Below, in pieces: positions 47,571 through 62,893 of a stretch of 64,000 nt of DNA. The notes under the pieces were generated by a model. That model made no database searches. It saw only the letters and a program-made list of their open reading frames with translations, and had not been told where the DNA came from. This DNA is from an uncultured Nitrososphaerota archaeon (lineage in GTDB: Archaea > Thermoproteota > Nitrososphaeria > Conexivisphaerales > DTJL01): the NCBI GenBank assembly GCA_963842885.1, contig CAWJIE010000002.1, positions 128,001 through 192,000 of the forward strand. Direction: 5' to 3'. Position 1 is the stretch's first letter. The number at the start of each line of letters is the position of its first letter. A program made the translations under genes and the position numbers.

Positions 47571-48167
47571 CTAGCTTGTGGTCTTCCCTTCCGCAGCCCT
47601 GCTCACTATGCGGAAGATGGTGCTCAACATGAGGATCGCCTGCTCAGTGGGCGGCTCCAGGCTGACGATCTGGAAGTACCTCTCCTTCCCTGAAGGTTCC
47701 GCCTGGGGCACCATCACGACGTCTCCTGGCGAGACGGGGACGCCGTTGAGGGCCAATTCGATGTACCGGGCGTCAACTGAAGGCGTCTCAGCCAACGACA
47801 TGACCTCTACATAGTTGGCCGGAAGGGCCTTCACCCTCCGCAGGCTGACGGTTTCGCCCACAGACACCCTCGCGTTCTCCCTCGTCACGCGGTCCATCTT
47901 CGTTACGCCTCTGTCCACCGGCTGACGAGAGCCGTCGGCCACGACCTCGCCGGCGTCCGTCCGTTCGTCGCCCAGCGGAAGGCACATGGCGACCGTCCTC
48001 CTCCTCCCAAGGACCTCGAGAACGTCCCCCGCCGATGCGCCCAGGGCCTCCATGGTCTCTGCGTCCACCCTGACCACTCCTCGCCCTGCGTCCCTGTCCC
48101 ACGCCTCAAGGACCTTCAAGCTGATGCTTTTAATCACCAAGGTCAGAGAGACACCTCCGCCCTTCAT
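47571..48167 (-). CDS. Stand-alone Cdc48/VAT N-terminal domain protein (no AAA module)
   Basis: LKVLEAWDRDAGRGVVRVD..TMEALG...GDVLEVLGRRRTVA...MDRVTRENARVSVGETV, plus second subdomain; clean stop. Confidence 0.85.
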   Translation of the reverse strand: MKGGGVSLTLVIKSISLKVLEAWDRDAGRGVVRVDAETMEALGASAGDVLEVLGRRRTVAMCLPLGDERTDAGEVVADGSRQPVDRGVTKMDRVTRENARVSVGETVSLRRVKALPANYVEVMSLAETPSVDARYIELALNGVPVSPGDVVMVPQAEPSGKERYFQIVSLEPPTEQAILMLSTIFRIVSRAAEGKTTS

Positions 48168-48284: not shown

Positions 48285-48632
48285 CTACTTCATCAGCTCC
48301 GCCATGGCGACGTGGAGCTGCCGGGGGGCCGCCATGGATAGGGCCGTCCTCAGCCTCTCCGCCGCCTGCAGCTGCCTTTCGATCCTCTTCCTCTGGTTCC
48401 TCTCGTGGACAAGGCGGTCGACATCCTCCCCCATCATCGTCTTCAGGAGGGAGGCGAATCCGGGGGACATCTGGCCCAGCCTTATCCTTTCAATTTCCGC
48501 GTCGACTCCCCTGTTGCAGATGCCCCTGATGGAGGAGAGCATGGCCCCGTCGGCGGCGGCCGCCTCCTCCCTGACCTTCCCGAGCCTTTCGGCGAGGAGC
48601 AGAGCCTCCTCCGAGAGCCTACGCTGGCCCAC
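48285..48632 (-). CDS. Small helical hypothetical protein, coupled to the upstream coiled-coil gene
   Basis: Overlaps the upstream stop by 14 nt; charged helical composition. Confidence 0.6.
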   Translation of the reverse strand: MGQRRLSEEALLLAERLGKVREEAAAADGAMLSSIRGICNRGVDAEIERIRLGQMSPGFASLLKTMMGEDVDRLVHERNQRKRIERQLQAAERLRTALSMAAPRQLHVAMAELMK

Positions 48633-50758
48633 CCTTCAGCTCATCCCTGAGGGCGTCCCTTAGCTTCCCAGCGGCCAGCTGCAGCTTGGGGAACTCGCCC
48701 TTCTCCGCGTACTGCTCCAGCTTGTCGGCGAAGCCCATTCCGAAGGCGAGAAGCTCCTGCTTCTGGGCCTCCCCGACTGCCATGAAGTGCAATATGGGCT
48801 TGAGGGCCTCGAGCCTCCCTATCTCCTCGCCGACGTCCTTCGCTCGCAGGTAGGTCTGCTCCACCTCTTGGGCGAAGGCGTCGAGCCTATCAGCCGTCGC
48901 CTTGAGGACGGTCCCGGCGCCCGTTGAGGCTTCGATGCGCATCTTCTTCATGGAGGACTCCACAGCCTCATCAATCGACCTTATCTCCTCGGCCGTCTTC
49001 ATGGCCATTCCCTCGGCGGCCTTCTGGAGCTCTTCGGTGTAGGACTGCACCGACGCCTTGGCCATGAGGGTAATCCCTTCGATGTCCTTCTCCAGCTGCG
49101 CCTTCATGGAACCGAGATGGGCGACGTTCTCGGTGAGGGTGCTCTGCTGGTGCTCCAGGGCAGCCACCTGCTTCTGGAGCTCCTCCATGTGCTGGGAGAG
49201 GCCTTGGTACCGTCTGAGCTCCTCCCCCACCAGGGCAGCCGAAAGGTTCGTCTCTTCGAGGATCTTTCCCCACTTCGCCATCTCCCGGGCGTCGACGCCC
49301 TTCTTCATGGCGCTGACGTAGCCGTCCACCGCCTCCATTTCGTTCTTGTACTCCTCCTCCAGCCCCGCCTTCTTCTTGGCCAGGGCCTCCGTCTCAGAGG
49401 TGAGGCGGCCCAGCTCCTCCTCCGCCACTTTGACCTCCTTCGCCTTCCCCTCCCTTAGGCCCTCGAAGCTGGCCATCTCCCTCAGGCTCGCCCACACGGT
49501 GTCGGCGCTGAGGTTGGCATCGTCGAGGAGGCGTGCCCAAGCCGCCATCATCGCGTCCGTCACTCCCTTGTCCTTCAGCCCAGCGTACGCCTCCAGCTGC
49601 CCGGCGACCTTGGCGCGCTCCTCCCCTATGGCCGCCAGCTTCGCGTTAGCGGCCTCCAGCGCTTGGGGGAGGGCCTTGATCTTGTGGTCGAACTCTTCCA
49701 GGAGGAGACCCTTCCTCTCCTCCAGCTCCTTGACCTCGGGGGCTAGGCCCAGGAGCATGTCGTAGTGCTTCAGGAGATCCTCTTGGAACTTCTGCATCGC
49801 CTCCGACGCGCTCAGGCCGTGGTTGGCCGATGTCTGGACGACGAGGTTCCTGATCTCCTGTATGCCGATATATGTCAGGCCCGTCTGCTCGTACCTCCAG
49901 AATCTCCTCCACAATCTTCTGCTTTGCCTGCGTCTCCCTTTCGAGCTCCTCCTTCTTCTTCCGCAGTCCGTCGACCTCCCCTTTCAGGGAGGCCTCCTCC
50001 CTGCCGAGGTCGCCCACTCGCGACTCGACGCCGTCGAGGGACTTCAGCACTGAGGAGACCTTGGCCGTGTCGAACCCCTCCTCCTTCAGGCCCGAGAGGA
50101 CCCTCGTCGCCTCGTCCAGGGAGGACAGCTCCATCCCGGCAGACGAGAGGGCCGTGCGCATCTTGACGAACTGCTCCAGGTCCTTCTTGGCGGTGTCGTG
50201 CTCTTCGAAGAGGTTCGCGAGCTCCTTCCTCTTCTCCTCGCACTGCTTGGAGAGCTTCTGCTGCTGCTCCTTGAGCACGGGGACCCTCGATACCATCATG
50301 CCGTACTCCTGCCTGATCAGGTCGAAGCCCTTCCCGTACTTCTGCTCTAAACGCTCTATCTCTGCGCAGTTCTCCGCGACCTTGGCTGCGGTGAGCTCCT
50401 TGTCCTTGGACCTCTGGAGGACGTCCCTGACGAAGTTGAGGGCGGCCTCCCCCTCCAGCCCAGCTTTCTTCAGAGCCAGCGCTACCCCTGCCCCGTCGGC
50501 CATTTCCGTGGGAGAGAGCTTCCTCTCCAGCATGGCTTCGGCAACTTGGTGCAGCTCGGCCACGGTCTCCGTCACGTCGAACTCCTCCGCCGCGGCCCAG
50601 ATCCCCTTCTTGTTCCAGAACTTCTCAAAACTTGCAATCTCCCCCTTGACGACCCGCGCCTTCTCCTTCGTCCTCTTGGCTACCCCGGGCTCGGTACAGC
50701 CTCCAAGGTAGGAGCCAATAATCTCCCTACGCCTCGCCGGAGAAATGGTCGCGGGCAC
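48619..50758 (-). CDS. Long coiled-coil repeat protein with N-terminal HTH-like segment; frameshift near 49895 (~710 aa joined)
   Basis: ORFs 49646..50758 and 48619..49914 join in consistent E/K/L heptad composition. Confidence 0.75.
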
Positions 50759-54173: not shown

Positions 54174-54971
54174 TCATTCCACATTGAAGCGCAAGAATAC
54201 AGTCTGTCCCCACACATCGGCAACAACCACAGTATAGGGGCCAGCAGGGAACTGATGAAAGGCGACCACTGAGGAGCCCCCCGTATACGCCGTATAGTAT
54301 CCAGCAGCCCCGTCCAGAGGGCCTCCCTCCGTATACTGCCCGTTTGTGCTGATGACTGACTTGAAGGGGCTCAAGGAGAAAATGATGTCTTCGATATTCG
54401 TCCAGTTGGTGCCTGCTAAATCTACGAACTCCTCCGCCGCCGTATGGCTGCCAGGGAGGAAGGTGATCCTGGTCAGTGTCAGGGGCGCAGCGCAGGGAAT
54501 CGGATAGGGCTCGGCCAGCTGTAGTGGAGGCCCGGCCGTCGAGATGTCGCCCGAAGTGTAGTTGCCCTGGAACACCGCGATGACGAGAATCGGCTGCCAA
54601 TTGCACACGTTCGTGCTGTACGGCCCCCACGCTGTGATGTTAGAATAGGTGGCGAAGTCAGGGTACAACGTGAGGTCTTCTTTGAGGGTGTTCACAAGCT
54701 CCGCCGTAACGCCTATCGCTTCGCCCTGCCGAATCCCGGTCGAGTTCAAGGTCACAGAAAGCTTCAGCCCCAAGGCCGACGTCAGGCTGGCGTTCTGAGG
54801 CGTTGAGTTGAGGCCGCCGGATGACGAATTGCGGCCGCTGGTGGATGGTGGGAAGAATACGAAGGCTAACCCGACGACGTCGAAGAGCATGAGGACCAGG
54901 GCCACTCCCACAAGCACCTTGCTCGCCCCTCTTCTCATGCCAGCTCCATCGCTAGATTGTCTCCACAGCAT
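54174..54971 (-). CDS. Membrane-anchored secreted hypothetical protein
   Basis: N-terminal TM; GLKLSVTLNST, AVFQGNYT and GPYTVVVADVWGQ. Confidence 0.7.
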   Translation of the reverse strand: MLWRQSSDGAGMRRGASKVLVGVALVLMLFDVVGLAFVFFPPSTSGRNSSSGGLNSTPQNASLTSALGLKLSVTLNSTGIRQGEAIGVTAELVNTLKEDLTLYPDFATYSNITAWGPYSTNVCNWQPILVIAVFQGNYTSGDISTAGPPLQLAEPYPIPCAAPLTLTRITFLPGSHTAAEEFVDLAGTNWTNIEDIIFSLSPFKSVISTNGQYTEGGPLDGAAGYYTAYTGGSSVVAFHQFPAGPYTVVVADVWGQTVFLRFNVE

Positions 54972-55003: not shown

Positions 55004-55819
55004 TTATTGGCTGCCCAAACCGCCACCGGTGAGGGATACCTGAGGCTCGACGGCCACGATCCTCTCCCTTAGCTTGGCTGAGACCTCAGGAAGAAGCTTC
55101 GCCGCGACGTCCCCCATCTTGAGCTGCTGCCACTCAGAGGGACGAATGACTTGGGAGAACCCCATCTTCTCGGCCAGCTCGTATGCCTCCTTGGCCTGGG
55201 CCTCCTCCCCGGAGAAGATGGAGTCCTGGAGGCGCGAAAGCAGGAAGACCGCCGCGTAGATTGCTTGGGCCTTGGAGGCGCCCAGCTCCTTCTCCTTGGC
55301 TTGCAGGGCGACCCCCAGCGCCGCCTTCCTCTCCTCGACGGGCTTGTAGATGCCCAACAGGATGGAGCCGACGACGTTCTCTTCCTTGGGTGGAGCCTGA
55401 GCCCAGAGACCTACGAACGCCTCTCTCGGGTTCTCGCGGACGGTCCTGAGTGCCTCAAACGCGGCGCCCCTGGCTGAGACGAACTCTCTCAAGAGGGGAA
55501 ACAGCTCGTCGCAGAGCTTGCCGTTGCGATCGGCCATCTCCAGGGCGGGCCTGCGGAGGATGGAGGCCAGCTCCAAGACGGTGGAGCCCCTTTCGGAATG
55601 GAGGGAAAAGTCGCCCACCCGCAGGTCCGTCTCCCCCAGCTCCACCACGGTCCTCTCGTCGTACGCGAAGGCCGTCAGCTGGAGGCGCTCCTTCTTGAAG
55701 AGCGAGTGTCTCTCGTAGGTCGCCACTACATTCCTTTTCTCTTCGTCGACTTCCACCGTCACAGAGGAGTACTCTTTTCCCTTGTAAGTGGCGAAGACGA
55801 ACTCCAGCGACCTGCTCAT
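55004..55819 (-). CDS. Hypothetical protein, N-terminal beta (PH-like) domain plus helical domain; last gene of the tubulin-like operon
   Basis: ATGA overlap with the upstream gene; beta-strand pattern then amphipathic helices. Confidence 0.75.
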   Translation of the reverse strand: MSRSLEFVFATYKGKEYSSVTVEVDEEKRNVVATYERHSLFKKERLQLTAFAYDERTVVELGETDLRVGDFSLHSERGSTVLELASILRRPALEMADRNGKLCDELFPLLREFVSARGAAFEALRTVRENPREAFVGLWAQAPPKEENVVGSILLGIYKPVEERKAALGVALQAKEKELGASKAQAIYAAVFLLSRLQDSIFSGEEAQAKEAYELAEKMGFSQVIRPSEWQQLKMGDVAAKLLPEVSAKLRERIVAVEPQVSLTGGGLGSQ

Positions 55820-56859
55820 CGTATCGCCTCCATGCTCAGGTCCTTAGCCTTCATGGCAACCTTACGGTAGCCCTCCTCAAGGTACTTGGGGAGGGGAAGG
55901 CCCTTCACGCCGTATAGCACGAGGAGGTCGTAGAAGCCGTACCTGCTCATGCCCTCCACCACCTTCGACTCCGAGCTGATCAGGTCCGGGAACCTCTTGC
56001 AGTATTCATCGAAGGCCTTGGCTATGTCGCCGGCAAGTTCCCTCCCTGCCAAGGCGAAGAGGTGGGCCATCACGACATCTTCGTTGGGGACGGCCGACGA
56101 CATCACCTCCTTTTGGACCGAGAATGCGTCGGGGACCCCCTTGTACACCTTCCCGGACGCCGCCAGGAGGGGCGAGAAGGCGTGGAAGGTCACGCCGAGG
56201 CGGACGTCCTTCTTAACGAAACCGGAGACCTCCTTCAGGTTGCCCAGGAAGTAGTTCATCACCCTCAGGAGGGCCGCGCTCCCCGTGAGCAGCCCTTCGT
56301 CCTCGGTGAAGCAGGCCAGGTCATCGATGAACTCCTGATTGACGAGGATGAGCGGCTCCTTCCTCCGGACGGCCGCCTGGAGAGAAACGAAGCTGGAGCT
56401 CTTCTCCATGGCCGTGGCTCCCCTCTCCGGCACCAGGGCCATGACGACGGAGTTGGAGTCAAGGATGGGGGACGAAAGGAGGGCTGGCGCCAAGGGATGG
56501 GCCGTGTCGACCACGACGAACCTGTACCTGCACCGGTCGTAGCCGACGAGCCTGAGCCAGAGCGTGATGTCCTTCGAGTAGGCCTTGTAGTATTCGAGCC
56601 ATGTTCCTCCCTCCAACTCCTTCAGTGAGAGGCCCGATGCCTTCCTCTCCTCCGTCGCCCCCAGGGAGACCTCACCCGCCCAGGCGCCGCCGACCTGGGG
56701 AGCAGGGAGGCCCAGAGACAGGACCTCCATCTCACCGAAGTTCGGCGTGACCTTAGGGAGGGTTATCGCGGGGAAGAGCTCCGAGTACAGGACGGGGGCC
56801 CCGCACTGGTCGCAGGTCACCAAGGGGCCCACTTCGTGGCCGTTGACGCACCTAGGCAT
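55816..56859 (-). CDS. Zn-ribbon protein with a probable inactive FtsZ/tubulin-like fold
   Basis: CVNGH...CDQCG; VMALVPERGATAMEKSSSFVSLQAAVRRKEPLILVNQEFI resembles tubulin S5-H5-S6; lacks GGGTG[S/T]G. Confidence 0.65.
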   Translation of the reverse strand: MPRCVNGHEVGPLVTCDQCGAPVLYSELFPAITLPKVTPNFGEMEVLSLGLPAPQVGGAWAGEVSLGATEERKASGLSLKELEGGTWLEYYKAYSKDITLWLRLVGYDRCRYRFVVVDTAHPLAPALLSSPILDSNSVVMALVPERGATAMEKSSSFVSLQAAVRRKEPLILVNQEFIDDLACFTEDEGLLTGSAALLRVMNYFLGNLKEVSGFVKKDVRLGVTFHAFSPLLAASGKVYKGVPDAFSVQKEVMSSAVPNEDVVMAHLFALAGRELAGDIAKAFDEYCKRFPDLISSESKVVEGMSRYGFYDLLVLYGVKGLPLPKYLEEGYRKVAMKAKDLSMEAIR

Positions 56860-59113
56860 TCTTGACCACCATGGCCTCGTCGGAGGAGTCGAACGACACC
56901 TTCCTGTGAGTCAGCATATACAGCTTGATGTAGACTATGGAGGCCTCGCGCTGGAAGGGTAGCTCCGAGATGGGGACGTATTCCCGCTTGGCGACCGCCG
57001 CCTCGAGGACCTTCCTCGCTATGGGATACTGCGAGAGGAGTATGAGATTCTGCTCGTCCACCCTCCTCTTCTCCTGGAGGTTGGAGAGGACGGAGGTGGC
57101 CTCCTCCACGAAATTGGAGAGGGAGCCGAAGGTGGGCTTGCTCGCGGAGAGCTCTTGGGACAGCGTCTGGAGCCTCGTCGACTGATCTATGGACTCGAAG
57201 CGTATGACCTTGGTGGCCCCAGGCGTGAGGGACCTTATGAGACGCTCGAGCTGTTCCGACTCCTTCCGCCAGTTTTCGGTGGCCTCCTGAAGGAGGAGGG
57301 AGGTGGCTGCGAGGGCCACGGCGTAGTCGGGGGAGGAGGCCGGCTCGGCGGGGGTGAGCTTCTCCATCTCGGCTTCCAGCCTCCCCCTCCTTTGGCCGTC
57401 GAGGAGCGCGCCCAGCCCCCTGACCTTGGCCGTCAGCTCCTTCACCTTGTCCTCCAGCTCCTGCTTCGACGTGTTCCTGAAGTTCAACCAGTACTCCTCG
57501 GAGACGAGCCTCATCCCCGTGACGTACTCTCCCGAGTCGAAGAGGTAAGAGGCGTTCACCGGAGGGGTGAGGTCTTGGCGGTCAGTGATGAAGTTGTATG
57601 CGGTGCTGACGGCTGTGTACTGGGTGAATAGCTCGGATGCAGCATCCCGGACGCCCTTCGTGAGCTCCTTGTAGCTTTCTACGGCCGCCTCCAGCGACAG
57701 GAGGCCGTCGATGTTGTCCAGAGTGGGGAAGCGGCCCGCGGCCTTCGCCTCCTCCAGCATGTTGTTGTGGGTCGAAGCCAGGGCCGAGAGGGAGGTGAGC
57801 TCGTTGATGACCTTAATCCTGAGGTTCTCGGGCATCTTGTCGAGGCTGGGGAGGACCTTCCCCTGCAGCTCCGCCGTCCAGTTCACCACAGTCTCGTAGC
57901 TGGCGGTGCCGATCCCCCTATCGACGTCCTTCATCAGGGCGGAACACTCGTCGACGGCGAGCTTCTCGGGGCGGACGGATACGGTGGGCGCTTCGGAAGC
58001 TATCGTCTGGATGGCACGGGACGCCTCCTCCAGGAGCTCCTTGTTCTTGGTCAGCAGGGAGGCGAGGTCGTTCTTGGCGAACTCCAGGCGCTCCAGCCGC
58101 TGAATCGAGTACTCCCTCACGGTGAAGATGAGCCCCACGCCCAGAGCACATGAAAGGAGGAGGACGTCGTCTAGGGGGTCCGTAACGAGCGACGTCTGGT
58201 AGCCCCCCGCCGATGAGGGGGAGAGCGTTGTGATGAGCGCTACGAAGGTGACGGCCGTCACGAGCCCGGCCACCAGCGGAGAAAGGACCTTGACCAGCTG
58301 GCGAAACCTTTCGAATGCCCCCAGCCGGCTCAGCGACGTGACCACTATTCCGGCGACGGAGGCTGACGCGCTGAAGATGATGCCCAGCAGGATGACGGGG
58401 ATGACCAGGTAGGTCGAGTCGGCTGAGGAGATGTACGTGGTCACCTGGGTGGCATAAGGGGATTCGATGTTTAAGGGGAAGACGAGGGGGACGTTGAGCC
58501 CCGAAAGGGAGGGGGCCATGTAGTCGTGGAGATCCTTCAGGTAGGAGAAGATGACCGGTATATGTGTGGAGAGGACGCTGGCCTGGAAATAGATGCCGTT
58601 CTCAAGGAGGAGGAGGGGGATGAGGGTGCTGACAAAGGTGACGGAGACAGGACCGATGCTCTCCAGCCCCCCCACGGCCGCCGCCGCCACGATGAGGGCT
58701 ATTGAAAGGTAGTAGAAGGGGGTGAGCATGAGGGCGACGGCCATCACGGCAAGCGCCATCGACGACGGCTCAATCCTAGCGCTGACCAACTCGAAGACGA
58801 AGAGGAAGGCCATCAGGCCCAGGGTCAGGAGGCCGTTGGTGGTCTTGACGACGTGCAGGAGGCCGAAGCCCAGAAGCTGCCAGCCGATGGTCGCGAAGGC
58901 GAAGAGGGCCAGCATGACGGAGGCCCAGCGCGGCCTTCTGAGGGCGGCCAGGCCCAGCCCCAGGGCGACAAGGAGGGCCAGCACGGGGAAGCCTGAAGCA
59001 GTGGGGAGGAAGTTGACGACGGAGAGCCAGACGAAGGCGGAAAGGGCGATGAGCGGCGACGCGGTGTACTTGTTGATTGTGGCTCGCGCTTTGGAGGTGG
59101 TCCCTAAGGTCAC
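56852..59113 (-). CDS. Polytopic membrane protein with a large cytoplasmic coiled-coil domain
   Basis: About 9-10 TM helices in the N-terminal ~335 aa, then heptad-rich helices; GTGA overlap with the upstream stop. Confidence 0.85.
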   Translation of the reverse strand: MTLGTTSKARATINKYTASPLIALSAFVWLSVVNFLPTASGFPVLALLVALGLGLAALRRPRWASVMLALFAFATIGWQLLGFGLLHVVKTTNGLLTLGLMAFLFVFELVSARIEPSSMALAVMAVALMLTPFYYLSIALIVAAAAVGGLESIGPVSVTFVSTLIPLLLLENGIYFQASVLSTHIPVIFSYLKDLHDYMAPSLSGLNVPLVFPLNIESPYATQVTTYISSADSTYLVIPVILLGIIFSASASVAGIVVTSLSRLGAFERFRQLVKVLSPLVAGLVTAVTFVALITTLSPSSAGGYQTSLVTDPLDDVLLLSCALGVGLIFTVREYSIQRLERLEFAKNDLASLLTKNKELLEEASRAIQTIASEAPTVSVRPEKLAVDECSALMKDVDRGIGTASYETVVNWTAELQGKVLPSLDKMPENLRIKVINELTSLSALASTHNNMLEEAKAAGRFPTLDNIDGLLSLEAAVESYKELTKGVRDAASELFTQYTAVSTAYNFITDRQDLTPPVNASYLFDSGEYVTGMRLVSEEYWLNFRNTSKQELEDKVKELTAKVRGLGALLDGQRRGRLEAEMEKLTPAEPASSPDYAVALAATSLLLQEATENWRKESEQLERLIRSLTPGATKVIRFESIDQSTRLQTLSQELSASKPTFGSLSNFVEEATSVLSNLQEKRRVDEQNLILLSQYPIARKVLEAAVAKREYVPISELPFQREASIVYIKLYMLTHRKVSFDSSDEAMVVKNA

Positions 59114-61770
59114 GCTGATCCACGCCCTTTCGCCCTAGGCGAAGGGCCGCTCAGCTTGGAGATCAGTTCAGCGAGGTCCGTGATGCCGTGCTCCAACAGG
59201 AAGGAGCGGAACATGACGCGCTCCACCTTGCGGACGCCGTCGGCGTCGTTCCTCATTCCCTGAAACTTCTCCAGCTGCTCGACTGTGGCCTTGGCGAAGA
59301 TTATCAGGAATGTGATGGTCCATGGGTCCACCTGCGGTATCTGGCGGATAGAGATGCTCTTGCTTGCCTCCACGCTGGAGAAGATGTTTAGGGTGCTCGA
59401 AAGGTTCACCTGGAGGTCCTGGTCCCAGAGCCCCTGGGGGATGCCCACAGTCGCCCATATCAGGTCGGAGCGGTAGCCGTCGTTTAGGCCGGCGTAGTTG
59501 GAGACGCTGAATATGCGCATGTAGCTCTTTACCACGTCCCTGAAGCGGTCCCTGTCGACTATCTCCCTGAGTATGCCCTCGCCCTTAAGCGAGGCCTCCT
59601 CCTCCGTGAGTATCTTCTTCAGTATCTTCTCCTGTTCGTCGTCGCTGAGCTCGACGACCCTTTCGAAGTAGCTCCCCGTGCCCGAGATGCTGCTGAGCAT
59701 GCTGTTGAGCTCGGCCGTCTTGCCGACGATAGAGTTAAGAGACTTCCTGTACGGTGAAGTGACTTCGAGGGACTTCTCCAAGGACGTCAGGATGTCCAGC
59801 TCGGAATGGAGCCTGTCCACCTCCGCCTTCCTCTCCTCGAGCGCGGTCTTCTGGGCGCCTATCTCACCCTTCACGGACTCAAGGTGGCGCCGGATGACCT
59901 TCCGTCTGCCGCTGATGTCCAGCCTTATCTTCTGGAGCTCCCCCTTGAGCCTCGTCTCCTCCGTCTCCTTCTGCGCCAAGAGGCGCATGAGGGACTCCAT
60001 CTCCTCCCCCGCCTCCTTGAACCTGGACTCCAGGTTCTTCCTTACCACCCTCACGCCGGGGATGTACTGGTCCGACATCTTGATCTCGGTCTCGGGCTTC
60101 GTCAGAATAGTCCCCGCCGTCTTGAACAGTGGGGTCACCTCCGTCTCGCCCACGGTGACGGCCCTCTTCCCCTCCGGGCTCTGGTCCTTGGCGAAGCGTA
60201 TCTTCAATTCGTCGGCGAGGGCCTTGGTCCTCAGGTACGTGCCGAAGACTTGAATGGCGCCGTTGACCAGGTTGACGAAGTTGATGTAGGAGCGTATCTG
60301 CCTGAGCTGGCTGGAAGTCACGAACTTGCTCGCCGTCAAGCTGCTTTCGACGTCGGCGAGGCTGGCGGCGAGCCCCTTGGTGAAGTCCTCGTAGGTCCTG
60401 CTTATCTCCGAGATGTCCTGGCTCCAGCGGCCTATCTGCTGCATCACGGAGTACTCCACCGTGTCCTCGGAGAAGGCCATGGCCTTCAGCGCCTTGGCCC
60501 ACTTGTCGTTGTAATATGCGGCGAAGTCCTCTATCCCCTTGACCTGCTTCTTGAACTCGAGATCATACTTGCCCGCCCTGTGTATGACGTCCTCCACTTC
60601 GGCGTCGAAGGACTCCGGCCTGTAGTTGTTGATGGAGATGAGGTGCCTCCTGAAAAGCTCCACCAGTTCGATATACCGCCTCTTCAGCACGTCGTCGATC
60701 TGAGAGAGGGACTCCCTCTTGAGGTTGACAAAGGAGCCCACCGACTCCAGGAGCTTCAGGTACTCGTGCAGGTACTTCAGGTAGTCCTCCAGGGGGTAGC
60801 GGATCTTGAGGTAGGCGATGTTGTGGACCCAGTTCTGGCCGAAGTCGTTGTTCGTCCCGACGCGGCTGAGGAGGTCGGCCAGGTCGAAGTTCATCATAAC
60901 ATGGACGATGTCGACGATGGCCCCGTCCAGCTCCTTTTTAGCGCTGAGAAGGGAGCTCTTGTTGTTGTAGACAGGGTCTAGAGGTAGGAAGAACATGGCG
61001 GTGAAGGGGTTCCTGTATGCCCCGCCATACGCCTTGATCACCCGTTCGTTGGCCTCCCTGTCGAAGAGGAGTTGCGCCTCCATCAGCGTAGCATAGGGGG
61101 CCGGTCCCCGGGCTAGGAGGTCGTCGGCCGAGCTAGGGAGTATGCCCAGCCCCACTATTGGGACGGCGGATCCCAGTTTCGCCCTCAGGTGGCGGGCGAA
61201 GTCGAAGATGAGACCGCTCCCCGTGCCTCCTCCCAGCCCGAAGACCAGGAGGACTATGGGCTGATACTTGGAGGTGAGGACCCTGTCCTTGTAGACGGAC
61301 ATCACGCTGTTCAGCTCGACGTAGTGGTAGTAGTTCAGGGCGTACACGGCCTTGCTGAGCGCCCTCTGCCTGCCGACCCCCCCGGCTAGGGGCGGGATGG
61401 ACATGGAGGACTGGATCCACGGCCTGTAATCATTGACGGTGACGCCATCCTTTTCGAGGTACTTGGAGTACTTCTCCATGAACTCGAACAGGGCGTCGGG
61501 GGTGTTGAACTTGATATTCAGGGGCTTGAGCCACAGGCGATCGACGCCGATTCCCTTCTCCTCAAGCTTCGCCATGGCCTCCTTGTAGGAGGCCTGGAGG
61601 GAGACCAGGTCCCCATCGGCCACGTCGAGGGCGAGGCAGGCGATGCGGAAGTCCTCGGTGGCGAGGAGGCGTGCCAAGCGCTCGCTCTCTATGAGAGTCT
61701 GGATGACGTTGGCGCCCGTGCCGCCGAGGCCTATGACGTGGATGGAGGCGAAGACGTTGGCCTTGCTCAT
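59110..61770 (-). CDS. FtsZ/tubulin-like GTPase (FtsZl1/Tubulin_2-type) with long coiled-coil insertion
   Basis: VIGLGGTGANV (T1), AGGVGRQRALS, GLGGGTGSG (T4, 61213-61233) and NFDLAD (T7-like, 60874-60891); 886 aa. Confidence 0.93.
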   Translation of the reverse strand: MSKANVFASIHVIGLGGTGANVIQTLIESERLARLLATEDFRIACLALDVADGDLVSLQASYKEAMAKLEEKGIGVDRLWLKPLNIKFNTPDALFEFMEKYSKYLEKDGVTVNDYRPWIQSSMSIPPLAGGVGRQRALSKAVYALNYYHYVELNSVMSVYKDRVLTSKYQPIVLLVFGLGGGTGSGLIFDFARHLRAKLGSAVPIVGLGILPSSADDLLARGPAPYATLMEAQLLFDREANERVIKAYGGAYRNPFTAMFFLPLDPVYNNKSSLLSAKKELDGAIVDIVHVMMNFDLADLLSRVGTNNDFGQNWVHNIAYLKIRYPLEDYLKYLHEYLKLLESVGSFVNLKRESLSQIDDVLKRRYIELVELFRRHLISINNYRPESFDAEVEDVIHRAGKYDLEFKKQVKGIEDFAAYYNDKWAKALKAMAFSEDTVEYSVMQQIGRWSQDISEISRTYEDFTKGLAASLADVESSLTASKFVTSSQLRQIRSYINFVNLVNGAIQVFGTYLRTKALADELKIRFAKDQSPEGKRAVTVGETEVTPLFKTAGTILTKPETEIKMSDQYIPGVRVVRKNLESRFKEAGEEMESLMRLLAQKETEETRLKGELQKIRLDISGRRKVIRRHLESVKGEIGAQKTALEERKAEVDRLHSELDILTSLEKSLEVTSPYRKSLNSIVGKTAELNSMLSSISGTGSYFERVVELSDDEQEKILKKILTEEEASLKGEGILREIVDRDRFRDVVKSYMRIFSVSNYAGLNDGYRSDLIWATVGIPQGLWDQDLQVNLSSTLNIFSSVEASKSISIRQIPQVDPWTITFLIIFAKATVEQLEKFQGMRNDADGVRKVERVMFRSFLLEHGITDLAELISKLSGPSPRAKGRGSA

Positions 61771-62720
61771 AGGGCGTCACCCAGCTGCTCCTTCAGCTTC
61801 TTCAGGCGCTCCGCCAGCGCCTTGTCGTACTTCCCTGCCGTGACTTCGAGCGACGCCAGCTCCTTCTGGGCGTCGCTGACGATGCTGCCCGCGAAGCCGC
61901 GCCTGGACCTGGTCCTGACCCACATCAGGGCCAGGAGGAAGGCCACCAGCGCCAGGACGACGGTGGAAACCAGCAGCAGGGTGTAGACCGTGGTGCTGGG
62001 CGGGGCGGGGAAGTTCTGCGGATTGAGCGTGTTCAACAAGTCCGTGGCCGTCACGGGGAGGCCTGACGTGTAGATGGTCTGGGCCTGAGCCAGGAGCCTG
62101 TTGACTACGCTGGTGTACGCCGGGTCAATCTGGCCCGAGGAGATGAGGTTGGACTTCTGTGAGTAGGTGTTGAGATAGCTCTGGATGGCGTCGTCCGATA
62201 TCGTGATGCTGTAGTTCGCCACACGGGAGCCACCTGTCACGAAGGCAGTGATCAGGTCGAAGCTGGGCTTGGCGAACCTGAGGCTGAAGGGGATTCCTTC
62301 GCTGTTGTTGAGCACTTGCGTCGTGAAGGTGGCGGGGATGGTGAACACGGCAGAGAGGGTGACCTCACCCTGCACCTGGGTGAATATCACAGCGGGGGAC
62401 CCTGGGGTGAAGGACGCGGGGCTGTATCCAGCGTAACCAGGCGTCAGGACGTACCAGTATTGGGAGCCGCTGAGGGTCATGCTGGGGTCCAGGAAGACCG
62501 TAAAATTGGAGATCGACTGGGTGAACGGGACTTCCAGGGTGATGGTTACGTTGTAGTTGTGACCAGCCAGCAGCGGCTGACCGGCCGCGACGTCCACGTT
62601 CCCCGTGAAGTCATGCACTGAGTAAGCGCTCACCCAGTTCGTCGTAGCGGCATGGGCAGGAATCGCCAGAAAGGCGAGTGACAGAACTAACAGTAGCGAG
62701 AGGCCTCTCTGCCTTCTCAT
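61767..62720 (-). CDS. Single-pass surface protein (signal peptide, beta-sandwich ectodomain, TM, short cytoplasmic coiled coil); first gene of the operon
   Basis: MRRQRGLSLLLVLSLAFLAIPAHA signal; TM LLLVSTVVLALVAFLLALMWV; ATGA overlap with the GTPase. Confidence 0.85.
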   Translation of the reverse strand: MRRQRGLSLLLVLSLAFLAIPAHAATTNWVSAYSVHDFTGNVDVAAGQPLLAGHNYNVTITLEVPFTQSISNFTVFLDPSMTLSGSQYWYVLTPGYAGYSPASFTPGSPAVIFTQVQGEVTLSAVFTIPATFTTQVLNNSEGIPFSLRFAKPSFDLITAFVTGGSRVANYSITISDDAIQSYLNTYSQKSNLISSGQIDPAYTSVVNRLLAQAQTIYTSGLPVTATDLLNTLNPQNFPAPPSTTVYTLLLVSTVVLALVAFLLALMWVRTRSRRGFAGSIVSDAQKELASLEVTAGKYDKALAERLKKLKEQLGDAL

Positions 62721-62723
62721 AAA

Positions 62724-62742
62724 GGAGGTAGAATCTACCTCC
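62724..62742. promoter_or_regulatory. Perfect palindrome GGAGGTAGA-A-TCTACCTCC between the TATA box and the start of the tubulin-like operon
   Basis: 9-bp arms with a 1-bp centre; cttatatt TATA on the minus strand at ~62745-62752. Confidence 0.6.
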
Positions 62743-62893
62743 GAATATAAGCCTAACGTGTGTCGGGTCTTTCAGCTCGAGAGTGGGAGGTGTTGACCTC
62801 CTCCTCTCTACGAAGGCCGGCGCGGGACCAGCAGAGCCTTCGACATGGGAAACTCTTAAGACCTGACTCGCTCCTGTTGACCCGAGCCCGAAG

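Follow-up and report, generated by a model that had tools for sequence, protein, structure and literature searches.

A 64,000 nt window of contig CAWJIE010000002.1 (assembly GCA_963842885.1), from an uncultured Nitrososphaerota archaeon, carries a cassette of five minus-strand open reading frames (ORFs) spanning nt 55004–62720. It is probably a chromosomal operon for a GTP-driven, membrane-anchored assembly of two tubulin-like proteins acting on the cell envelope. Members of the tubulin superfamily serve in cell division, cell shape and DNA segregation. The cassette joins a large GTPase of the FtsZl1 type (P0002) to a smaller protein of predicted tubulin fold (P0004), two membrane proteins (P0001 and P0003) and a lineage-specific fifth protein (P0005). 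The FtsZl1 family corresponds to Pfam Tubulin_2 (PF13809) and was treated by Makarova and Koonin in 2010 (PMC2875224); the available text of that paper also predicts a 'crenarchaea-specific subfamily' from one disrupted Sulfolobus gene. Literature searches back to the 2010 prediction returned no experimental study of the FtsZl1 branch. In the available text of a 2023 family survey, Tubulin_2 proteins are put aside as an outgroup (PMC9871819), and that of the Culexarchaeia paper mentions FtsZL1 for two Sulfolobales only (PMC9723716). The searches found no description of the cassette or of its second tubulin; the supplementary tables of PMC2875224, which lay outside them, may list partner families.

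The five genes (g1–g5) form a translationally coupled unit: they overlap by 4, 4, 8 and 4 nt, and their junctions read, in order, ATGA, GTGA, the 8 nt ATGCCTAG and ATGA. P0001 (g1, nt 61767–62720; 317 amino acids, aa) has a signal peptide, an ectodomain, one transmembrane (TM) helix and a basic tail. It is followed by P0002 (g2, nt 59110–61770; 886 aa), the FtsZl1 (Pfam Tubulin_2)-type GTPase of the tubulin/FtsZ superfamily, and by P0003 (g3, nt 56852–59113; 753 aa, GTG start), which has a polytopic membrane domain and a charged helical domain. P0004 (g4, nt 55816–56859; 347 aa) combines a zinc (Zn) ribbon with a tubulin/FtsZ fold without G-box or T7 motif, and P0005 (g5, nt 55004–55819; 271 aa) is a soluble protein of a lineage-specific family. 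This arrangement agrees with a first-pass annotation of the same DNA, which had described five coupled minus-strand genes, among them those for a single-pass surface protein, an 886 aa FtsZ/tubulin-like GTPase and a Zn-ribbon protein with a degenerate tubulin-like fold. It had also reported that vWA, kinase and extra GTPase genes were absent, and no match to vWA, kinase or P-loop GTPase families was found by Pfam or NCBIfam in the five proteins.

The cytoplasmic protein P0002 is, judged by its motifs, a divergent member of the FtsZl1/Tubulin_2 GTPases in which both the nucleotide-binding loop and the T7 catalytic loop are intact. Its Pfam Tubulin_2 score of 41.5 bits (residues 12–214) exceeds the gathering score of 27, and no other place in its genome has a PF13809-type match. 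The motifs are T1 (GLGGTG), a G-box (GLGGGTGSG) and a T7 loop (NFDLAD). Residues G178, G180–182, G184, G186, D296 and D299 are invariant in an alignment of 56 g2 sequences, all of which have the G-box and none an N-terminal Zn ribbon. The strict T7 pattern NxDx[A/S]D is present in 30 of the 56, yet both aspartates are invariant in every one. When the N-terminal 345 residues of the family were compared by hhalign with genuine FtsZ, represented by FtsZ genes from cassette-bearing genomes, the match had a probability of 97.8% (E = 5e-12, 247 columns), and NFDLAD of P0002 fell on the FtsZ T7 loop, NLDFAD. One homologue (43% identity) is assigned by NCBI to Sulfolobus tengchongensis.

The AlphaFold2 (AF2) model of P0002 (predicted local distance difference test, pLDDT, 89.4; predicted template modelling score, pTM, 0.78) has an alpha/beta head (residues 8–324), a stalk of long helices (about 327–695) and a C-terminal alpha/beta domain (about 703–875). 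The stalk comprises about 370 aa in several helices, including helices of 47–56 residues. The C-terminal domain is conserved and mixed alpha/beta (strands 771–776, 806–811 and 818–828) rather than mainly helical, and the order of secondary-structure elements is compatible with the stalk being an insertion in the tubulin C-domain. Foldseek gave 29 matches to this model at E ≤ 1e-3; CetZ2 was the best (E = 8.7e-7), and the others included CetZ1, CetZ, Odin FtsZ1, TubZ, FtsZ and tubulins. At the sequence level, the family profile aligned to CetZ1 at the G-box alone (E = 5e-4). Profile matches to IJAP1, CdvA and other coiled-coil proteins were taken as compositional.

The second tubulin, P0004, is on the evidence of its structural model a paralogous protein with the complete, two-domain tubulin fold that has lost the G-box (a pseudo-tubulin). 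A CxxxH...CxxC Zn ribbon occupies its N-terminus, and the protein has no Pfam match, including to PF00091 (Tubulin). The AF2 model (pLDDT 93.3, pTM 0.85) gave 727 Foldseek matches at E ≤ 1e-3, the best being CetZ (3zid_A, E = 8.5e-12, TMq 0.61), and all of the 45 matches listed were CetZ, FtsZ, tubulin, gamma-tubulin, TubZ or their complexes. Foldseek had been named as a check in the first-pass annotation, and for both P0002 and P0004 the models are confident and the top matches belong to the tubulin superfamily. A word-index search with P0004 found four relatives only; a g4-family profile, searched against 1.84 billion proteins, recovered 180 representative clusters at E ≤ 1e-3. Ten weaker profile matches were scanned with Pfam, and three of them had a Tubulin match, one above the cut-off.

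The P0004 family aligned by hhalign to a 444–482 aa Zn-ribbon protein encoded in the cassettes of Chloroflexota and Nitrosopumilales (probability 97.5%, E = 7e-12, 336 columns). This protein carries the motifs GVGDQG and ALGGGTGSG and aligns to FtsZ over 289 columns with a probability of 97.7%; two such proteins, at 39.0 and 43.1 bits, clear the PF00091 cut-off of 33. In the alignment to its orthologues the G-box is deleted from P0004, and the T7 position in Chloroflexota g4 reads QVDPGY. Type A sequences, P0004 included, have the N-terminal Zn ribbon (10/10) and neither G-box nor T7 (0/10 each), and those of type B have none of the three features (0/3 each). In the C5 set (types C and D) the Zn ribbon is present in 12/12, the G-box in 11/12 and T7 in 0/12. 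The T7 motif was found in none of the 25 g4-family sequences.

A link to the membrane and envelope is supported by the core itself, since P0001 and P0003, half of its four products, are membrane proteins and P0001 has an ectodomain. P0001 has a hydrophobic signal-like segment at residues 7–25 and a single TM helix at 248–266, followed by a basic tail of 51 aa. Its ectodomain of about 220 aa contains four N-x-S/T sequons and an FPxPP motif; residues Y56, W89, G98, G118 and G220 are invariant in an alignment of 26 sequences, and an amphipathic helix in the cytoplasmic tail is kept from archaea to Chloroflexota. P0003 has 9–10 TM helices in residues 21–332, then a charged helical domain of 421 aa that is probably cytoplasmic and includes a conserved C-terminal block of about 60 aa. 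The earlier description of P0003 as a polytopic membrane coiled-coil protein stands for the membrane part, with nine hydropathy peaks, while the coiled coil is backed by weak PDB-profile matches to long-helix proteins only. Pfam gave nothing consistent for 23 g3 members, and neither P0003 nor P0005 had a usable Atlas match. Those weak long-helix matches aside, P0001, P0003 and P0005 had no match in Pfam, NCBIfam, PADLOC, PHROGs or PDB sequences.

The gene set was traced by a pattern scan of 185,579 species genomes, which gave 68 loci whose ORFs were all then searched with iterated profiles. Linkage was counted only where a locus had enough flanking DNA, hence the differing denominators. Gene g1 lies adjacent and upstream of g2 in 61 of 64 loci (the misses being L024, an overlapping-frame artefact, L057 and L075), and g3 is present in 54 of 56 (not in L057 or L074). 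Both g3 and g4 are found in 44 of 47 (not in L048, L057 or L074), and the count and the misses are the same for g3, g4 and a fifth gene together. Synteny in other genomes had been named beforehand as a check on the annotation; since the genes are syntenic in dozens of other genomes, the set is more than a chance grouping.

The window's order, g1-g2-g3-g4-g5, was seen in 11 clean cases. In three others a different fifth gene, b5, takes the last place (g1-g2-g3-g4-b5), and in 16 a gene termed c4 precedes g4 (g1-g2-g3-c4-g4); 11 further cases have this last order with c4 inverted, and two have the order g3-g4-g1-g2. Sampling of the phylum added nine loci. Six carry the whole four-gene core, two are cut by contig ends and one (L092) is a solitary g2. 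The six are arranged as g1-g2-(g4 inverted)-g3, the same followed by c4, or g1-g2-g3-g4. Linkage of the core therefore survives rearrangement, as seen in the inversions of c4 and g4 and in the order g3-g4-g1-g2. The conserved core is genes 1–4, and the fifth gene (g5, b5 or c4) varies by lineage. In this respect the annotated five-gene unit is corrected to a four-gene core; the fifth genes of the different lineages show no significant homology to one another (probabilities: g5 against b5, 32.9%, E = 4.6e-4; g5 against c4, 16% or 0.4%; b5 against c4, 7%). The distant match L075 is a classical FtsZl1: it has no cassette partners, scores 193.6 bits over the full Tubulin_2 profile and has a vWA gene beside it, in direct contrast to the window's cassette.

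The family of P0005 was found in 17 sets (16 loci and the window), with no detectable relatives outside the cassette; a PDB sequence-profile search with c4 gave nothing significant. In L018 and P0147 the g4 protein is extended to 519–524 aa, and the extension matches the helical C-terminal half of g5 (probability 97%, E about 1e-11). This natural fusion suggests contact between the g4 and g5 products and is the sole support for any interaction among the cassette products.

Two of these loci have further features. On the Nitrososphaerota-labelled contig of L018, an extra inverted g5-g4-g3 half cluster (L018:375–4534, minus strand) lies directly upstream of a full g1-g2-g3-g4 cassette (L018:6969–14450, plus strand), in which g4 is fused to part of g5. 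The solitary g2 of L092 (L092:7908–10790, plus strand) encodes 960 aa, has its own C-terminal CxxC...CxxC and no g1, g3 or g4 nearby. An ABC-2 transporter gene, 56% identical to one near the window's cassette, flanks it, and the ORF that comes after it carries a Walker-A motif, GxxGxGKT.

By record title, the carriers of the cassette are Nitrososphaerales, Bathyarchaeia, Nitrosopumilales, a Thermoproteales metagenome-assembled genome (MAG), a Desulfurococcales MAG, and Dehalococcoidia or other Chloroflexota. The first-pass annotation had described the system as archaeal, but it is not confined to archaea: 22 cassette-type Chloroflexota loci carry it, with a small tubulin that has GGGTGSG. A maximum-likelihood tree was built from 61 of the 69 g2 rows, omitting those without a g2 frame above 800 aa (L023, L025, L064, L066, L067, L070, L071 and L074). 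In it the 22 cassette-type Chloroflexota rows cluster together with support 93; their sister group consists of 12 Nitrosopumilales-type rows (support 98), and the remaining cassette rows are archaeal. Because the tree is rooted only at the midpoint, through a very long outgroup branch, it does not establish the direction of transfer between archaea and bacteria.

Carriers keep other members of the superfamily. Canonical FtsZ is retained in three cassette-bearing Chloroflexota genomes (160–172 bits), and one cassette-bearing archaeon has four further Tubulin-family matches (75–141 bits). The window's own genome encodes a 324 aa tubulin-family protein with a degenerate G-box, GLGGSSGS (L002:967–1941, minus strand, contig C5; 37.8 bits to Pfam Tubulin), which may be a divergent FtsZ-like protein typical of the lineage. 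A Snf7-like match in the same genome (22.1 bits) is below the cut-off, as is that of the Sulfolobus control. Since carriers keep these other FtsZ/Tubulin-family genes, the cassette is unlikely to be the primary division machinery.

Dehalococcoidia are not known to make peptidoglycan. Among the five cassette-bearing Chloroflexota genomes tested, none had a SEDS gene and none a penicillin-binding protein (PBP) transpeptidase gene, and each had a single Mur-ligase-type match, which is the archaeal pattern. Of 14 control genomes, ten had both SEDS and the PBP transpeptidase, and those ten were bacterial. From these gene contents, the hosts assessed appear to have an envelope of membrane plus surface layer.

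A mechanism can be proposed for the membrane-anchored two-tubulin assembly. P0002 would polymerise or oligomerise head-to-tail, the T7 loop of one subunit activating GTP hydrolysis in the next. P0004, which in this lineage lacks the usual means of binding GTP, would neither hydrolyse it nor activate a neighbour, and may cap, nucleate or obligately partner P0002 at one end or face; lineage-specific P0005 would bind P0004 as an accessory subunit. Membrane attachment would come from the stalk of P0002 together with the helical, cytoplasmic part of P0003, and P0001, through the conserved helix of its tail, would link the assembly to an ectodomain touching the surface layer. Turnover of GTP could then deform or organise the membrane and envelope of peptidoglycan-free cells, giving shape, budding or surface-layer patterning. 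A bolder version, which we consider possible and hold only tentatively, is that the products form a polar two-tubulin heteropolymer, an uncharacterised class of cytoskeleton wired through the polytopic protein and the surface anchor to shape or bud the envelope. One subunit would always supply the catalytic T7 loop and the other never, and the whole set would have moved as a unit between archaea and wall-less bacteria. If so, the heteropolymer would have arrived independently at a sharing of tasks like that of alpha- and beta-tubulin, with a T7-less subunit whose GTP loop was kept in Chloroflexota and lost in Nitrososphaerales.

Several observations weigh against an envelope-remodelling polymer. 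Polymerisation, GTPase activity, membrane binding and complex formation are all predictions, as are the roles put forward in the first-pass annotation (shape, vesiculation, cell-cell bridges or secretion). The Tubulin_2 match of P0002 is partial, covering only profile positions 2–208 of 356, and by hhalign its residues 696–886 showed no significant match to FtsZ, C5, A4 or B4; because the C-terminal domain has no significant profile match to the tubulin C-domain, a complete polymerisation interface is left in question. The topology of the soluble domain of P0003 is drawn from hydropathy and charge only, and the charge pattern at TM7 is ambiguous. Some cassettes look broken: g3 lies in two to five pieces in L017, L069, L010 and L053, as does g2 in L025, and the cassette of L074 is truncated, with no g3 or g4 downstream; gene decay or assembly errors could account for this. 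The distribution is patchy. Among 41 close relatives (the window's genome counted) 4 have the cassette, and a search of a congeneric genome, 95% complete, did not find it. Across the phylum, 401 sampled genomes included 16 carriers (13 among the 334 of high quality), concentrated in a few families. As an accessory, patchy system, it is therefore not a core cell-biology function. The association with wall-less hosts is confounded by phylogeny, as the bacterial carriers are one clade, and is a correlation, not independent support.

The surroundings of the window's cassette are ordinary. A TATA-box-like TTATAT (nt 62745–62750, minus strand) lies 30 nt upstream of the P0001 ATG; the spacing between box and start is that usual in archaea, and the element suggests a promoter for a leaderless or near-leaderless operon transcript. 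Between this box and the start there is a perfect 9+9 palindrome with a 1 nt spacer (GGAGGTAGA-T-TCTACCTCC; nt 62724–62742, minus strand). It could be an operator or a 5′ hairpin, and is not kept upstream of g1 in 15 related loci inspected. The upstream neighbour of the operon is a divergent short-chain dehydrogenase (SDR) gene. Downstream, a gap of 32 nt separates g5 from the unrelated gene of a secreted protein, P0006 (nt 54174–54971, minus strand, as P0005), which is followed by an ABC-2 transporter; a VTT gene is also in the neighbourhood. P0006 (265 aa) has one N-terminal TM or signal-anchor segment, seven N-x-S/T sequons and no family match. It was considered as a sixth cassette gene and set aside, with no homologue in the 68 loci or in all 77 related loci; it probably lies outside the cassette and may be co-transcribed with it. 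The ABC-2 transporter as a shared neighbour was likewise rejected, as it is near the cassette gene in L092 only, and the other matches were to generic ABC ATPases. Flanking genes are not conserved among the 77 loci. No vWA, Ser/Thr kinase, P-loop GTPase or OmpA partner was found by Pfam or NCBIfam in the cassette, P0006 or the neighbours.

Elsewhere in the window, a stand-alone 198 aa protein (nt 47571–48167, minus strand) has the CDC48 N-terminal domains (PF02359, PF02933) without an ATPase domain, and two large ORFs beside it (nt 48619–50758) have no family match. No tRNA was found in the 64 kb, and no mobile-element gene was seen in the window; integrases near the other loci were not searched for systematically.

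The architecture of P0002 also invites a comparison with dynamins. Its model has a GTPase head, a multi-helix stalk of about 370 aa and a C-terminal domain, as in the bacterial dynamin-like layout, and the C-terminal domain has no detectable tubulin C-domain signal. In the available text of PMC2875224, described FtsZl1 proteins are considered possibly non-filamentous. Together with the membrane partners in the core set, this would fit a machine without a filament, in which P0002 forms a GTP-dependent dimer or small oligomer, folds its stalk onto its head and fuses, severs or tubulates membrane with P0003, while P0004 is a regulatory pseudo-enzyme. We regard this as unlikely, although it deserves consideration: the head has the tubulin/FtsZ fold and not a P-loop (dynamin-type) GTPase domain, both T7 aspartates are invariant, and the presence of another tubulin-fold subunit is more simply explained by a polymer or heterodimer. 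In characterised tubulin-superfamily proteins the T7 loop acts across the longitudinal polymer contact.

The patchy distribution, together with the movement of the cassette between domains, the unconserved flanks of the 77 loci, the extra inverted half cluster in L018 and the lack of known matches for three of the five protein families, might point to a conflict or defence module or to mobile-element cargo, with P0001 sensing infection at the surface and the GTPase and membrane protein arresting or killing the cell. Such a role is improbable. The sole PADLOC matches were weak ones to LmuB, confined to the coiled-coil stalk (best 20.9 bits, E = 2e-5), with none for the other proteins, there was no PHROGs match, and a viral scan confirmed none of 142 candidate stretches as relatives. 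Contigs that bear the cassette reach about 2 Mb; in the window, GC content is not anomalous and the neighbouring genes are of an ordinary chromosomal kind (SDR, ABC-2 transporter, VTT). DNA segregation or positioning of the TubZ type is very improbable: here a P0002 filament would move DNA or cargo, with the Zn ribbon of P0004 as adaptor. Nucleic-acid binding is common among Zn ribbons, the structural matches of both P0002 and P0004 include TubZ, and the solitary g2 of L092 has its own CxxC...CxxC and is followed by the Walker-A ORF. CetZ and FtsZ nevertheless score above TubZ, the core includes two membrane proteins, one with an ectodomain, and no helix-turn-helix, TubR-like or other DNA-binding family was matched in the cassette proteins by Pfam or NCBIfam. 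The contigs are chromosome-sized and without a viral-contig match, plasmid collections lying outside the search.

Read as a two-tubulin assembly at the envelope, the cassette defines a compact, strongly conserved version of an FtsZl1-type system. It also identifies a tubulin partner predicted to be catalytically dead, for which the bacterial g4 proteins with a G-box would be live intermediates, and the cassettes form a natural series for how a tubulin pair divides catalytic and structural roles. With an invariant T7 loop to mutate, a fusion hinting at a subunit contact, and hosts without the tested peptidoglycan genes, the function and polymerisation of FtsZl1 become directly testable. The Sulfolobus-named homologue may give a cultivable route to experiments.

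Among known systems, the alpha/beta-tubulin and BtubA/BtubB pairs are alike in that two paralogous tubulin-fold proteins are made together, only one with a working T7. The T7 of beta-tubulin cannot activate hydrolysis of the GTP bound to alpha-tubulin. The window's second protein differs in having also lost the nucleotide-binding loop, and the cassette pair is unlike in size and domains and tied to membrane proteins; a heterodimer is a prediction here. CetZ (PDB entries 3zid, 4b45 and 4b46), the non-division, cell-shape tubulin of archaea, heads the structural matches of P0002 (E = 8.7e-7) and of P0004 (E = 8.5e-12), whereas in sequence the P0002 family aligns to CetZ1 at the G-box only. To our knowledge, CetZ lacks both stalk and Zn ribbon and comes without an operon of dedicated membrane proteins. 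The likeness to FtsZl1 is in layout and company: according to the available text of PMC2875224, described FtsZl1 proteins and P0002 alike begin with a tubulin/FtsZ-like GTPase domain (GGGTG(S/T)G), continue in a long middle part that is helical or coiled-coil and end in a globular domain. They too are encoded with membrane-associated proteins, and membrane remodelling is a prediction only. The T7 loop is alignable in P0002, whereas the T6–H7 elements are reported there as not identifiable in described FtsZl1. The Tubulin_2 score is also far apart, at 41.5 bits over the first 208 of 356 profile positions for P0002 and 193.6 bits over the whole profile for the classical L075. Finally, the described operons include vWA, kinase, P-loop GTPase and OmpA partners, and the cassette, without these, has instead a second tubulin-fold gene.

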